Translations under genes and position numbers: made by a program
The notes under the pieces: generated by a model
What the model saw: only the letters and a program-made list of their open reading frames with translations
What the model was told of the DNA's origin: nothing
The model's database searches: none
Source of the DNA: Heterodontus francisci
Lineage: Eukaryota
Direction of reading: 5' to 3'
Assembly: GCF_036365525.1 (NCBI RefSeq)
Contig: NC_090383.1
Span: 27,199,914 to 27,263,913, forward strand
Length of the DNA stretch: 64,000 bases
Shown: piece by piece, positions 10,331 to 56,790 of the stretch
How the letters are laid out: every line of letters starts with the position of its first letter
Numbering within the stretch: position 1 is the stretch's first letter

Positions 10331-10662
10331 AACATTAATCATTAAACTTTTTTACTCTTTCCAACCTTCTCTCTTTCTCTGCTCAATATTTTCCTATAAA
10401 GTTCTCTGAAATTATTTAAAATCCAGACAAGCTGGCTAAACTGAGTTGCGTTCACACTGTTGGGGATTTTCAAATGCTGGATTGCGCTGGGGTCGAGTAC
10501 AAGCACTAAAGATGCATACCTGGATTACAAATGCCTCGGAGGGGTTTACAGACATGCAGCAGCCTTCCTGTGAAGATGAAATCTGAGATCATATCACCTC
10601 TTGTAATAGGGCTGGCCCATCTAGGAGACAGGAAAACGGTTCACGGCAGACAATATTACAAG

Positions 10663-11034
10663 TTTTTTTTTAGATTAGAGATACAGCACTGAAACAGGCC
10701 CTTCGGCCCACCGAGTCTGTGCCGAACATCAACCACCCATTTATACTAATCCTACACTAATCCCATATTCCTACCAAACATCCCCACCTGTCCCTATACT
10801 TCCCTACCACCTACCTATACTAGTGACAATTTATAATGGCCAATTTACCTATCAACCTGCAAGTCTTTTGGCTTGTGGGAGGAAACCAGAGCACTCGGAG
10901 AAAACCCACGCAGACACACTGAGAACTTGCAAACTCCACACAGGCAGTACCCGGAATCAAACCCGAGCTGTGAGGCTGCGGTGCTAACCACTGCACTGCA
11001 AACCACTACGGTGCTAACGACTGCGTCACTGTGA
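10663..11034 (-). mobile_element. HE1/V-SINE-like tRNA SINE with CR1-type tail
   Basis: Reverse complement of the copy at 24987-25318; the head end is partly duplicated. Confidence 0.85.
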
Positions 11035-29384: not shown

Positions 29385-31370
29385 ATCATAGAATGCGTAC
29401 AGTACAAAAGGGGGCCATTCGGCCCGTCGTGTCCATGTCCCCTTTCTACAAGAGTAACTCACCGAGTCCCAATCCCCTGTCCTTTCCCTGCAGTCCTGCA
29501 TTTCCCCCCTTCTGATAATTATCCAATTCCTATTTGAAAACCACGATTGACTCTGCCACCGCTTCCCTTTCAGGTAGTGCATTCCAGATCCTAATCACTT
29601 GCTGCGTTTTAAAAAAAAAAAAGTTTTACCTTGGATCACTTTTGGTTCTTTTGCCATTCACTTTGAATCAGTGTCCTCTGTTTTTCACCCCCTTCTGCCA
29701 ATGAGAATAGTTTTTTTCTGTCTCCTCTGCCCAGACATCTCATGATTTTGAACACCTCTATCAAATCTCTCAACCTTCTCTTTAAGCAGAACAACCCCAG
29801 CTTTTCCAATCTATCCATGTAGCTGAAATCCCTCATCGCTGGAACTATTCTCAAACCTTTTCAGCACCTTCCTAAAGTGCAGTACCCAGAAATACACACA
29901 ATACTCCAATTGTGGCTGAATGTGTGTTTTATAAAGGTTCATCATAACTTAGTTGCTTTTGTACTTCATGCCACTATTTATAAAGCTCAGGATCCCTTAT
30001 GCCTTTTTAACCACTTTCTCAACCTGCCCTGCCACCTTTAGTGATTTTTGCTCGGGTTTCTCTGTTCATGCACCCCATTTAGCATTGTATCCTTTAGTTT
30101 ATATTGCCTATCCTCAGTTTTCCTACCAAGATGTATTACTTTGCAGTTCTTTGCATTAAATTTCATCTGTTATGTGTTTTCTCATTCCAGCAGCTGGTCT
30201 GTATTCTCTTGAAGTCTATCTCCTCTTCCTTCCAGGTTTTTATTTATTTATTTTATTTTATTTATTTAGAGATACAGCACTGAAACAGGCCCTTCGGCCA
30301 CCAAGTCTGTGCCGCCCATCGACCAGCTATTTATACTAATCCTACATGAATCCCATATTCCTACCACATCCTCACAATTCCCCTACCACCTATCTATACT
30401 AGGTATATACTATACTAGGGGCAATTTATAATGGCTAATTTACCTATCAACCTTCAAGTCTTTGGCTGTGGGAGGAAACCGGAGCCCCCGGCGGAAACCC
30501 ACACGGTCACAGGGAGAACTTGCAAACTCCGCACAGGCAGTACCCAGAATCGAACCCGGGTAGCTGGAGCTGTGAGGCTGCGGTGCTAACCACTGCGCCA
30601 CTGTGTGTATCATCTGCAAATTTTGAAATTATCCTCTGTACACCCAAGTCTTAAGACATATCAAAAAAAGCAGTGGTCTTTGTACCACCCCTGAGGAACA
30701 CCATTGTAAACCTTCCTTCAGTCTGAAACAACTGTTTATCGCTGCTCTCAGTCACTTAGCCAATTTAGTATTCATGCTGCCACTGTCCCTTTTATTCCAT
30801 GGGCTTCAACTTTGCTGGAAGCCTATTGTATGGCACTGTTGAAAGTTCTGAACACACTTCAGAGACTCTTTCCTCTCTCTGCAGTTTATATTATCATCCC
30901 AGTCTACATTAGGATAATTAAATGCCCCCATTATCACTACAGTATAGATGTTGCACCTCTGTAATTTCCCTGCAAATTTGCTTCTCTATATTTATCCCAC
31001 TATTTGGTGGACTATAGAATGCATCCAGTCGTCTAATAACATATATTGTTTCTTAACTCTGTAAACAAATAGATTCTGTCCTCGACCTCTCCAAGAGATT
31101 CCCTTCTCTCCAGCACTTTAATATTCTCCTTAATCAATACTGCCACCCCTCCTCCTTTCTTTGCTTCCCTGTCTTTCCTGAACACCTTGTATCCAAGGAC
31201 ATTTAGTACCCAGCTCTGTAGTTTTTTGAGCCAGGTCTCTGTTATTCCTACAGCATTGTATTCCCATTTGGCTACCTGCGTCTGCAGCTCACCAACTTTA
31301 TTTACCTCGCTTTGTATGTTTTCATACATGCACTGTAAACCTAATTTAGACCTTCTTGTATTCTCTTCTA
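29385..31370 (-). mobile_element. CR1 fragments (3' end, RT, APE) with a nested V-SINE at 30236-30605
   Basis: VGITETWL...RKDR...GGGVAVLIK (APE, ORF 31033-31329) and RLEKLGLF (ORF 29636-29854). The SINE matches 24987-25318. Confidence 0.8.
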
Positions 31371-40358: not shown

Positions 40359-40650
40359 AGAGTCATAGAGAGATACAGCACTGAAACAGGCCCTTTGGCC
40401 CACCAACATTAATCCCATATTCCCTACCACATCCCCACCATTCTCCTACCACCTACCTACACTAGGAGCAATTTACAATGGCCAATTTATCTATCAACGT
40501 GCAAATCTTTGGTTGTGGGAGGAAACCAGAGCACCTGACGGAAACCCACGCGGTCACAGGGAGAACTTGCAAACTCCGCACAGGCAGTACCCAGAACCGA
40601 ACCCGGGTGGCTGGAGCTGTGATTCTGCAGTGCTAACCACTGCGCTACCC
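40359..40650 (-). mobile_element. HE1/V-SINE-like SINE
   Basis: Same family as 24987-25318, with an internal deletion. Confidence 0.85.
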
Positions 40651-42090
40651 TTCATGTCTTTCGTATTCGTTTTTTAAAATCTGTATTATCATCATCATCT
40701 ACCAATTCTAGATGATCGGCCATCAATCCAATTATCCCTGCTTTTTTGGTACCTGATTTCAATTCCAACCCCAATTTCGCTGCCAATTCTTTTCATTTGT
40801 TCCTGTTAAAATTATCAAGTCACCCGGGGAAACATTCTGCTTTCCCAAAAACTCTGCTACAATCACTAATGCCATAACAATGGTATAGATTGTACCTTTA
40901 TTAAACAAAAGACCTGGTTCTTTTAATTTCTTTGTAATTGGTGTCAGATTTAGATCCCAACAATCAAGTTTCCAACTGATAAGATCTCAGACTCGCGAGC
41001 AATTAATGATGTCAATCGCAAGACCCCAAGATAAATGTTATCACAAAGACGAGTAATTACTATGATTCCAAATGTGAGCGAACCCCCAATTAAGATGATT
41101 CAAATCCACAGATGAGAAACCCAATTAATGTGTGATTCAAGTCGCAAATGAGCCCGCAATACATATGACTAACCGTTCCTGTCAAAACCCCCAATCAAAA
41201 TATTCGATACTGAGGGTGGTGGAGAGACGCACAGATATTTCAATGCCGTCGTTCCACAGATCGGCTAACACATCATTTAAAACTTTCCAAATTAAAGAAA
41301 GACCCAGCCAAATTGTACCATTTATTAACCGCCTGAATGAGGCTAACCAAACCAGGTGTCTTTAAATCAACAAATTAACTCTAATTAGAAAAACTAAATT
41401 CTTAAACACTATGAAGATATAAACAACATTTAAAATAGAAAAAATTAGGGTCCTTGCAAATTTACAGTACAATGTTGTTCAAAGTCCTCGCAGCCGTCTG
41501 GTGGGGAAAAGGTTCTTCCACGTAGAACAGTCTAACTTCAGCAGTAGGTGATGCTTCCTTCTTCGGCGATGAATTTCAACAACAACTTGCGAACACTTTT
41601 GATAGAATCAATCTGACTTTAGAGCTTTTGAGGGACAAAAGATTGCCACAGTCCAACTTCCCCTTCTTCAATTCAAATCACCAGAGATCTCTGTTTTGGC
41701 TTGATGTTTTAGAATTTTGAGAGATAATAATTAAACAGACTAAAATCCTTTTCCTTCAGTTTAAATGGTTGAGAGCTCTTTTTCAGGCATGCTCATCACA
41801 GCTGTGTCTGCTGTGCCTCTGTCTGTCTGTTAGGACAAACTGTCTCACTAAAAGCCAGTTCAAACTGAATTGTAACAAATGTATTGCATCAGGCTCACTC
41901 CCAGTGGCTATAATCTATGGTAACGAGAATGCACCCTTTGAATTGCAGTCTCTAAATGGCTGTTTCTAAGGCATCGAAAATGCACCTTCCTATAGCTCCT
42001 AAGGCTTGCTGGTTCTTAAAGCAATACTGATCCTTTGCAAGCCTTAAAGGCAAACCGCATACTCTGAGAAAAAACTACAGGACCATGACA
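40651..42090 (-). mobile_element. Gypsy-type LTR retrotransposon 5' remnant (LTR, PBS region, start of gag)
   Basis: LTR starts TGTCATG at 42090 and ends near 41164. tRNA-Pro PBS-like motifs at 40945-41160. ATG 40875 gives MALVIVAEFLGKQNVSPGDL.., then after a frameshift KELAAKLGLEL..IIGLMADHL, resembling the Gag N-terminus of fish Gypsy/Gmr1-like elements. Confidence 0.7.
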
Positions 42091-49302: not shown

Positions 49303-50576
49303 AAGCTACTAAGTATCATCACCTCATTCCATGACAATATGAAAGGCACAATTCAACATGGTGGCTCCTCATCAGACCCCTTTCCTATCCTGAGTGGTGT
49401 GAAACAGGGCTGTGTTCTCGCACCCACACTTTTTGGGATTTTCTTCTCCCTGCTGCTTTCACATGCATTCAAGTCCTCTGAAGAAGGAATTTTCCTCCAC
49501 ACAAGATCAGGGGGCAGGTTGTTCAACCTTGCCCGTCTAAGAGCGAAGTCCAAAGTACGGAAAGTCCTCATCAGGGAACTCCTCTTTGCTGACGATGCTG
49601 CTTTAACATCTCTCACTGAAGAGTGCCTGCAGAGTCTCATCGACAGGTTTGCGTCTGCCTGCAATGAATTTGGCCTAACCATCAGCCTCAAGAAAACGAA
49701 CATCATGGGGCAGGACGTCAGAAATGCTCCATCCATCAATATTGGCGACCACGCTCTGGAAGTGGTTCAAGAGTTCACCTACCTAGGCTCAACTATCACC
49801 AGTAACCTGTCTCTAGATGCAGAAATCAACAAGCACATGGGAAAGGCTTCCACTGCTATGTCCAGACTGGCCAAGAGAGTGTGGGAAAATGGCGCACTGA
49901 CACGGAACATAAAAGTCCGAGTGTATCAGGCCTGTGTCCTCAGTACCTTGCTGTATGGCAGCGAGGCCTGGACCACGTATGTCAGCCAAGAGCGACGTCT
50001 CAATTCATTCCATCTGCGCTGCCTCCGGAGAATACTTGGCATCAGGTGGCAGGACCGTATCTCCAACACAGAAGTCCTCGAGGCGGCCAACATCCCCAGC
50101 TATTACACACTACTGAGTCAGTGGCGCTTGAGATGGCTTGGCCATGTGAGCTGCATGGAAGATGGCAGGATCCCCAAAGACACATTGTACAGCGAGCTCG
50201 CCACTGGTATCAGACCCATCGGCCGTCCATGTCTCCGCTTTAAAGACGTCTGCAAACGCGACATGAAATCCTGTGACATTGATCACAAGTCGTGGGAGTC
50301 AGTTGCCAGCGTTCGCCAGAGCTGGCGGGCAGCCATAAAGACGGGGCTAAAGTGTGGCGAGTCGAAGAGACTCAGTAGTTGGCAGGAAAAAAGACAGAGG
50401 CGCAAGGGGAGAGCCAACTGTGTAACAGCCCCGACAAACAAATTTCTCTGCAGCACCTGTGGAAGAGCCTGTCACTCTAGAATTGGCCTTTATTGCCACT
50501 CCAGGCGCTGCTTCACAAACCACTGACCACCTCCAGGCGCTTATCCATTGTCATTCGAGATAAGGAGGCCAAAGAA
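49303..50576 (+). mobile_element. Young RTE-clade LINE, 5'-truncated, uninterrupted RT-to-C-terminus frame
   Basis: About 400-aa open frame GVKQGCVLAPTLF...LLFADDAAL...YLGS...LYGSEAW...HSRRC; candidate TSD ATATTAC on both sides. Confidence 0.95.
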
Positions 50577-54214: not shown

Positions 54215-56790
54215 CTTTGTTTAGTTGTGGAGAAGGACAAGGAGCAATCTAGGATAAAGATACCAAACTGGGGACAGGCTAATTTCAGCGAATTGAGGAG
54301 GAATCTAGTCCAGGTAAATTGGAGTCAAAGACTGGCAGGCAGAAATATAGTGGAGCAATGGTTGTCCTTTAAAGAGGAGATAGTTCAAGTTACGGTCCAG
54401 ATTCCCACAAGGGGAAAGGGAGGGCAACTAAAGCCAAAGCTCCCTGGGTGACAAAGGAGTTAGAGAATAGGATGAAGCAGAGAAAGAGGGTGTATGACAG
54501 CTTGATAATACAATGGAGAATCATGCTGAATATATGAAGTACAGAGGAGAAGCAAGAAAGGAAATAAGGGCAAAGAGACAGTATGAGAACAGATTGGTGA
54601 CTAAGTAAGAGTATCTCAAGGTCTTCAGTAAATACATTAACAGTAAAAAGGTTGTCAGAGGAGCAGTGGGGCTGATTAGGGATCAAACTGGAGAGCTATT
54701 GGTGGAAGCAGAAGATGTAGCTGAGGTACTAAATAAGTACTTTGTCTCTGTTTACCAAGGAAGAGGATTTTGTTAAAGCTATGGTAAATGAGAAAATTGC
54801 TGGGATACTAGATAAGATTTTTTTTAAAAATGAAGAGTTACTAGAAAGATTGGCAGTACCTACGGTGGATATGTAAGCCGGTCCAGATGGGATGCATCTT
54901 AAGTTGCTGAGGGAAGTAAGGGTAGAAATTGCAGAGGTCCTGGTCACATTGTTTATATCCTCCTTAGCTTCATGGATGGTAATAATGAACTGAAGGTTTG
55001 CAAATATTAAACCCTTGTTCAAAAAAAGCAGAAAAGGATAAACCTGGCAATCACAGGCTAGTCAGTTTAACATCAGTTGTGGGAAAGCTTTTAGAAACCA
55101 TAATCTGGAGAAAATTAACAACCACTTGGACAAGCATGGACTAATAAAGGAGAGCCAGCATGGACTTGTTAAGGGAAAATCATACTTGACTAACTTGATT
55201 GGGTTTTTTGATGAGGGCAGTGCAGTTGATGATGTATATATGGACTTTCAATAGGTATTTGATATAGTACCACATATTAGACTTGTTAGCAATACTTGCA
55301 TTAGCAGAAAAGGATAAACCTGGCATTAAAAACAGGCCAGTCAGTTTAACATCAGTTGTGGGAAAGCTTTTAGAAATCATAATCTGGAGAAAACTAACAG
55401 CCACTTGGACAAGCATGGACTAATAAAGGAGAGCCAGCATGGACTTGTTAAGGGAAAATCATACTTGACTAACTTGATTGGGTTTTTTGATGAGGGCAGT
55501 GCAGTTGATAATGTATATATGGACTTTAAATAGGTGTTTGATATAGTACCACATATTAGGTTTGTTAGCAATATTTGCATTTATATAACACCCTACCCGA
55601 CCACTGGACATCCCAAAGCACTTTACAGCCAATGAAGTGCCTTTTGAAGTATTGTCACTGTTGGAACGTAGGCAACGCGGCAGCCAATTTGTGCACAGCA
55701 AGCTCTTACAAACAGCAATGTGATAATGACCAAATAATCTGTTTTTGTGATGTTGTTTGAGCTATAAATATTGGCCAGGACATTGTCTCGCCTTCGAAAT
55801 AGTGCCATGAGATCTTTTACGTCCACCTAAATGGGCAGACAGGCCCTCGGTTTAACGTTTTATCCAAAAGACAGCACTTCTGACAGAGCAACACTCCCTC
55901 AGTGCTACATTTGAGTGTCAGTCTAAAAAATATAAAACGTGATTCCCATAAAAGGGATGTGGATACAAAATTGGCAGGAGGTATACAGTGGAGTTCCCCA
56001 AACTTTAGAATTAAGACCATCGTTGGTTTTGATACATATTAATGACTTGGGTCTACAGGACAAAACTTCAAAATTTGCAGATGATGAAACTTAGAAGTGT
56101 GGTAAACATGAAGCTAGTATTAGACTTCAAAAGGACATAGATGGTGGAATAGCTGGACTCATAGCAGATGAAATTGAACACATAAAAGTGCGAGGTGATA
56201 CATTTTGGGAAGAAGAATGAGGAGAGACAATCCATGCTAAATGCTGCACGCTTAAAGGTGGTGCAATAAGAGTGAGACTTGGGGGTGTTCGTGGGCAAAT
56301 CTTTAAAGGTGGCAGGAAAGGTTAACAAAGCAGTTAATAAATCGTATGGGAGCCTGGGCTTTATAAGTAGAAGCATAGAGTCCCAGAGCTAGGAAGTTAT
56401 GCTGAACATATATAAAATACAAGTTCAGCCTCAGATGCAATATTGCATCCAATTCTGGGCACTACATTTTAGGAGGGACATGAAGACTTTGAAGAAGACA
56501 TTTGCTAGAATGTTTCCAGGGATAAGGGATTGCAGTTATGTTGATGACTGGAGAAATTGGAGTTGTTTTCCTTAGAGGAAAGAAGGCTAAGAGGAGATTT
56601 AAGAGAGGTGTTTAAAATCGTGAAGGGTTTGGAGTAAATAAAGAGAAACTGTTTACACGGCTGCAGTGTCAATGACCAGAGGGCACACATTTAAGATGAT
56701 TGGTAGAAGAATCAGACACGACATGTAGAAAAATAAATTTACTTAAAAAGTAGTTAGTATTTAGAATGCATTATCTGATAGAGTGGTGGA
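54215..56790 (+). mobile_element. CR1 ORF2 relic with internal tandem duplication and nested Deu-SINE
   Basis: Decayed CR1 motifs throughout; duplicated units at 55027-55302 and 55303-55581. Confidence 0.8.

Follow-up and report, generated by a model that had tools for sequence, protein, structure and literature searches.

A tandem array of about six decayed units, each made up of a spacer, a tRNA-Pro primer binding site (PBS) and a short tail, occupies the leader of an old Gypsy LTR retrotransposon in a 64,000-nt stretch of Heterodontus francisci DNA (contig NC_090383.1, positions 27,199,914 to 27,263,913; hereafter the window). Three of the units (units 1-3) are firm and about six are defensible. 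The element is dead, and only its 5' part is left, up to the SINE near 40650 that cuts it. As a family trait, the array is common to other copies from three organisms. What was observed directly is that the units repeat, that they derive from tRNA-Pro, that other copies carry them in variable form, and that similar duplications are found in elements with the same LTR end and PBS. With a probability of about 0.58, the decayed spacer-PBS units arose as rare errors of plus-strand transfer and without a selected function.

Structure and genomic context of the element

The 5' LTR (about 714 nt) is located on the minus strand at 41164..41877 and is present in one copy; no second (3') LTR was found within the 64 kb window. 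The sequence-only reading had placed the LTR end at about 41164. Loose read ends at 41164-41172 confirm this position, as does a depth step, with depth in run X17 dropping from 198-667 to 8. The 5' start at 41877 is one that we infer from the terminal motif TGTTAC alone. The loose letters of other family copies finish in the inverted terminal motif, the terminal bases of the window copy being altered. As judged from read depth and loose ends, the LTR with its TG...CA termini is present in more copies than the internal region. An LTR end near 41200, with the PBS-like stretch at 41193 as the first leader unit, was ruled out by the aligned reads.

The leader is followed by a broken gag start in two frames, translated separately (40658..40875, minus strand), and by the SINE-like multi-copy repeat that truncates the element (40366..40650, minus strand; repeat families D1, D3, D9 and D11). 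No pol was found 3' of the gag fragment, and tblastn with a related gag-integrase ORF gave no match in the window. The truncation of the element by a SINE, which leaves just the 5' part, had been missed by the sequence-only reading, as had the match of only 12/18 between unit 1 and the PBS proper and the stretch in U5 at 41193, both described below.

The 45-aa gag piece had no match in sequence searches or in Pfam. The second gag piece resembles the gag N-terminus of a polyprotein with SCAN and with integrase before RT, although weakly (13/28 identical positions, pairwise E 5e-4). The gag piece ranks first among 2739 window peptides, but at E 0.46. The element is probably a Gmr1-like Gypsy, the gag link being weak at both E values. 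Gmr1-like Gypsy elements are described as having the integrase upstream of RT (PMC3587641). The window element shares with the SCAN-integrase-RT elements compared the type of LTR end, the Pro PBS and, by a weak match, a gag N-terminal motif, but is without pol.

The surrounding DNA is rich in SINE and LINE fragments (e.g. 10652-10965, 30242-30601, 40366-40648, 820-1441 and 49938-50576) and includes a two-copy, 279-nt tandem at 55027-55581. The SINE of the window presumably resembles the shark HE1 type.

Units of the array

The units start at 41158, 41123, 41088, 41056, 41028 and 41001 on the minus strand and are 26-35 nt long. All six unit strings quoted in the sequence-only reading were found on this strand where it had located them. 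Each stretch was scored with the 23-nt complement of the tRNA-Pro 3' end against dinucleotide shuffles, which gave p values of 0.001, 0.001, 0.011, 0.37, 0.21, 0.023 and 0.25 for units 1 to 6 and a proposed seventh unit. Unit 1 (41124..41158), the Pro-type PBS just inside the 5' LTR, is decayed and matches 12/18 positions, or, as the sequence-only reading had counted, 17/23 with the T-loop extension, before it continues into tail and linker; this ungapped 17/23 match is the best to the tRNA-Pro complement on either strand of the 64 kb window. Unit 2 (41089..41123) matches 19/23 with two gaps, and the two units form the two highest peaks of the gapped local score in the window. Unit 3 (41057..41088) matches 15/23. 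Unit 4 (41029..41056) is a copy truncated at its 5' end with a tail like the LTR end plus spacer, unit 5 (41002..41028) is shortened internally and unit 6 (40976..41001) is a weak copy.

Compared with shuffled controls, the whole array stands out, with a top-six score of 122 against a mean of 84.6 (maximum 110, 500 shuffles), and it still does so once unit 1 is removed (94 versus 70.6, p 0.002). Units 4-7 by themselves do not (46 versus 41.4, p 0.15). This joint value, together with the individually non-significant units 4, 5 and 7, would fit an array in which only units 1-3 are PBS copies and the remainder is unrelated leader or chance likeness. We consider this very unlikely, given the similarity among the units. 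Units 1, 2, 3 and 5 resemble each other in 6/6 pairs (p 0.002-0.01), which places unit 5 with units 1-3 at p<=0.01, and unit 4 is similar to unit 2 (p 0.004) and to unit 6 (p 0.014). The linker 'A[TA]CA..TAATT', a pattern picked post hoc, occurs four times in the array, a number reached by 0/698 window tiles, and other family copies are nearer to the tRNA at 41043 and 40987 (see below). Units 4-6 are counted in because of this mutual similarity or the read data. The proposed seventh unit (40946..40975) showed no similarity at p<0.05 to any of seven other stretches and is unsupported, so that about six of the about seven units first suggested are retained.

The array statistics and the presence of the array in other family copies bear out the proposal that the units are repeated copies of an LTR-end/PBS junction of tRNA-Pro type. 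The identity of the motif is supported by locus L089 of the related elements, where it runs into a near-whole tRNA with a UGG anticodon (RF00005, 32 bits). In units 1-2 the match continues across the T-loop as far as position 54-55, and the 3' part, GGAT/TTGA, is their best-kept portion. Units 4 and 6 are without the TGG that pairs with the CCA end of the primer. CpG decay accounts for 2/6, 1/8 and 2/10 mismatches in units 1, 3 and 6, respectively. The TGGG start of units 2, 3 and 5 fits a C73 discriminator, which we take to be that of eukaryotic tRNA-Pro. The array was not reported by Tandem Repeats Finder, no tRNA match was found on it with Rfam, and neither the window nor 10 related loci contain a tRNA according to ARAGORN.

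The self-similarity of the array is strongest at a lag of 70 (51% identity). The claim that units near the LTR are best preserved holds as a trend only (Spearman -0.72, p 0.068 for 7 units; -0.77, p 0.072 for 6 units), without a clean gradient. The U5 end contains a further PBS-like stretch (41159..41193, minus strand) in 35-nt register with units 1-3, as its start at 41193 continues the series 41158/41123/41088. It is similar to unit 3 (p 0.006) and unit 5 (p 0.036), its likeness to the tRNA being non-significant (p 0.11-0.37), and is possibly an old unit absorbed into the LTR, an unproven reading.

At 41159-41173 (minus strand), the usual terminal bases are absent from the LTR/leader junction, which resembles the tail of a unit. 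The decay of unit 1 is unusually strong (6/18 positions, binomial p 0.015-0.13). A deletion at this junction may have removed the true first PBS unit from the window copy.

The array in other copies of the family

Four public runs from three organisms were aligned to 40700-41500 at 80% likeness. In the raw reads of run X17, depth is 198-667 at 41159-41455, 8-48 over the array (40997-41158) and 58-79 in the leader 3' of it. Because depth falls over the array, either the array occurs in other copies and varies more than its flanks, or the window copy is too decayed to recruit reads. Contig pieces from three organisms reach units 4-6, with 22 differences over 130 nt in organism C and 21 differences in organism B.

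Letter comparisons were based on the 40 differences listed out of 141. Among these, other copies have the tRNA-predicted letter at 41043 in unit 4 (25/45 X17 reads and almost all of the depth in X1 and X11) and at 40987 in unit 6 (48/49 reads), and are further from the tRNA at 40996 in unit 6 (36/36 reads). Unit 2 is missing 7 nt in most contig depth and in 9/23 reads, likewise among the differences listed. In one contig, 39 nt replace 82 nt at 40979-41062, which removes sequence from units 5-6. Several contig joints jump over the array with the intervening letters unread, unit gains were not seen in the aligned runs, and LTR deletions of 41-76 nt are found in single contigs. In none of the four runs does an aligned record span the whole array, and a full-length leader that would reveal how many units another family copy has, and in which order they were added, was not seen.

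The persistence of units in copies from three organisms could indicate that the array is selected, be it for secondary tRNA contacts (in loading or packaging, like a PAS or a bipartite PBS), as backup primers or for the modulation of 3'-tRF silencing. Units 1-2 would pair through GGAT/TTGA with the seed of the 22-nt tRF3b, a would-be match that is intact in unit 2, as extrapolated from PMC7472051; the same source describes the action of tRF3a as highly mismatch-sensitive. Additional sites in cis would add targets to the element's own RNA and give no shielding. While two PBSs are described for Drosophila gypsy (PMC1635307), units 4 and 6 have lost the TGG, unit 2 is 7 nt shorter in most contigs, and folding of the leader is not better than that of its shuffles (z +0.42). 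Selection is therefore regarded as improbable. The two roles put forward by the sequence-only reading, as backup primers and as a decoy for 3' tRNA fragments, are unsupported in view of the changes in units 2, 4 and 6.

Related elements with the same LTR end and Pro PBS

A scan for the LTR end followed by an exact Pro PBS returned 2 viral and at least 121 metagenome loci. After L002 (retrovirus-like) and four loci with <150 nt downstream were dropped, 118 loci were left, which form 82 clusters among the matches listed; L124-L127 were kept out of the 82-cluster counts. The window family is not among the 123 loci listed (blastn best E 0.069). In the mixed locus set listed, SCAN was found in 5/5 ORFs scanned, and integrase precedes RT in 3/3 related full polyproteins. 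L002 is a gammaretrovirus-like viral contig, with a Pro PBS and 4 nt of further tRNA match. L124-L127, from contigs labelled as bacterial MAGs, have LTR/PBS junctions of animal type and no array by eye; they are probably host contamination.

Whole-PBS duplication is rare in these elements. It is clear in 1/82 clusters among the matches listed (L043/L116), and a downstream whole-PBS copy at p<=0.05 is found in 5/82, about the number expected by chance. Unlike the window leader, none of the 82 listed leaders has more than three recognisable whole-PBS copies, and the exact double-PBS pattern was found in 0 viral contigs. In L043 (2505-2580, plus strand; same in L116), spacer, PBS and 11 nt are duplicated with a 35-nt period, and a third remnant follows. 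The break falls exactly at the LTR end/spacer, and copies two and three are progressively shorter away from the LTR. The L043 element carries a long open SCAN-gag/integrase-first ORF.

Short stutters of the PBS 3' end, in contrast to whole-PBS duplications, are enriched across these elements. In 12/82 clusters among the matches listed, the 60 nt that follow the PBS contain at least two GGAT, compared with 3.6 in shuffles (maximum 9, 300 shuffles) and with 4, 1, 0 and 1 in four control zones of the same clusters. Of the 256 4-mers, GATA and GGAT show the strongest enrichment after the PBS in these clusters. A single GGAT or more is found in 31/82 among the matches listed (shuffles 21.5, maximum 32), which is not clearly significant. 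The frequency of exact 8-mer repeats is highest immediately after the PBS, at 17%, versus 0-12% in bins that lie outside the first 40 nt, again in the matches listed. Similarly, the junction seed is re-copied at least twice in 5/82 clusters among the matches listed, against a control mean of 1.4% (maximum 5%); re-copying at least once (13/82) is inside the range of control anchors (mean 11%, maximum 23%). A PBS relic in U5 of other elements is not enriched (3/80 at p<=0.05, matches listed). By eye, L004, L035, L047, L064, L065, L070 and L080 contain short tandem arrays downstream of the PBS, with as many as about 8 copies of a unit of about 10-20 nt that is made from the 3' end of the PBS and the few bases after it.

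These repeats bear on a more general origin, in which a 35- or 70-nt block that by chance included the PBS was doubled by slippage or unequal template switching and then grew as a minisatellite, with no link to strand transfer. The maximum of self-similarity at lag 70, as if a two-unit block had been doubled, the non-significant polarity and the 41-76 nt LTR deletions in single contigs are compatible with such slippage. It would not lead one to expect that, among the matches listed, repeats are enriched just after the PBS and not in LTR zones or further downstream, nor that the breakpoint in L043 coincides with the LTR end/spacer. We regard generic slippage as a rather doubtful explanation of the array.

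Matches that reach into the T-loop are frequent in these elements. The sequence-only reading had noted that the match in unit 1 runs past 18 nt, which is seen; no special event is needed for it, because such matches are common in related elements and conserved in lentiviruses. The motif N1-2GAA follows the PBS in 19/82 clusters among the matches listed (2.3 expected), and its variable base at the m1A58 position is possibly a signature of misincorporation or skipping. In L089 (256-359, plus strand), an LTR-like end is followed by the near-whole tRNA-Pro(UGG) complement and then by the last 15 nt of the LTR again; either the primer was read through completely before a jump back, or a tRNA retrocopy has been inserted with duplication of its target site. 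L095 and L105 have 17-20 nt of tRNA complement past the 18-nt PBS and then unrelated DNA, and are read as fixed primer-overrun products, perhaps aberrant right ends.

Proposed origin by strand-transfer errors

Plus-strand strong-stop synthesis is described as ending at m1A58, which RT can pass, with a second stop at position 54 (PMC8599865). In the origin that we favour, plus-strand strong-stop DNA would end in a fresh PBS copy, sometimes a few nt longer owing to T-loop overrun or a short first-template extension. This plus strand would be joined to a minus strand with spacer and PBS still present, right at the terminus of the latter; alternatively, it would slip back on its own template as far as the LTR end. 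By either route one junction unit would be added on the LTR side. Per cycle, only the priming site would be re-copied from the tRNA, and the units pushed downstream would decay, shorten and sometimes be lost. Because only the first PBS is re-copied from the tRNA, a rough gradient is expected passively, and the rough polarity would arise without selection for function. As a side prediction, priming at a downstream unit would shift the first unit into U5.

The strand-transfer mechanism, the addition on the LTR side and the neutrality of the units are what we infer from several lines of evidence: the array statistics, the greater variability of the array relative to its flanks, the recurrent PBS-adjacent stutter, the loci L043, L089, L095 and L105, and the 23-nt partial PBS duplication reported for MAL-type HIV-1 isolates (PMC3185550). 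Some of this evidence has other readings. The low depth over the array may partly be mapping loss on a decayed copy, the L089 arrangement could be that of a tRNA retrocopy flanked by a target-site duplication, and the retention of units in three organisms could be due to selection. Whole-PBS duplication is clear in just one of the 82 clusters among the matches listed, and single re-copying of the seed is within controls.

A bolder version of the strand-transfer origin is that RT writes a polarised tape, in which PBS units are added at the LTR side by overrun and end-to-end jumps and priming at downstream units feeds U5, so that the array dates errors and supplies tRF3b seeds. It includes a lower rate across tRNA-Pro-primed Gmr1-like elements than in the window family. 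The stretch at 41193 would then be in exact 35-nt register because the first unit moved into U5. This version is speculative and, as a whole, unlikely. If true, the array would date replication errors, LTR ends would grow by whole units and tRF3b seed sites would tune silencing.

Relation to known systems

The closest counterpart is found in MAL-type HIV-1 isolates, where 23 nt of the PBS are partially duplicated downstream of it. As in the window, the PBS was duplicated directly downstream, then underwent point mutation and was passed down in whole lineages. That report describes one partial copy, in contrast to the about six units, LTR-PBS spacer included, of the retrotransposon in the window (PMC3185550). 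In lentiviruses, a conserved tRNA complementarity is described that extends beyond the 18 nt of the PBS as far as position 54, the second RT stop (PMC8599865); as presented there, this is a single conserved site, whereas the extension is repeated with each unit in the window. Drosophila gypsy likewise has more than one PBS in a Gypsy element, but the second site is described at the 3' end of the genome and not as part of a tandem array (PMC1635307). Conserved repeats with unique spacers, as in a CRISPR-like acquisition array, were not found, as whole units resemble each other and one tRNA; by sequence likeness, this one tRNA would account for all recognisable units, with no sign that others were captured. 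No report of a tandem PBS array in a Gypsy leader was found in the open-access literature.

No function is shown for the array, and the window copy is dead. Most likely, the array is the extreme end of a recurrent tendency towards PBS-adjacent duplication and a by-product of strand-transfer errors. PBS duplication has so far been known as a single partial event in HIV-1. An inherited array of six units, together with the excess of PBS-seeded stutters in many animal elements, would point to a recurrent error mode of plus-strand transfer that is readable in genomes. Assemblies alone could then give the in vivo frequency with which RT runs past m1A58 and joins wrongly, and could tell whether 3'-tRF silencing leads to the purging of additional PBS copies or lets them persist.
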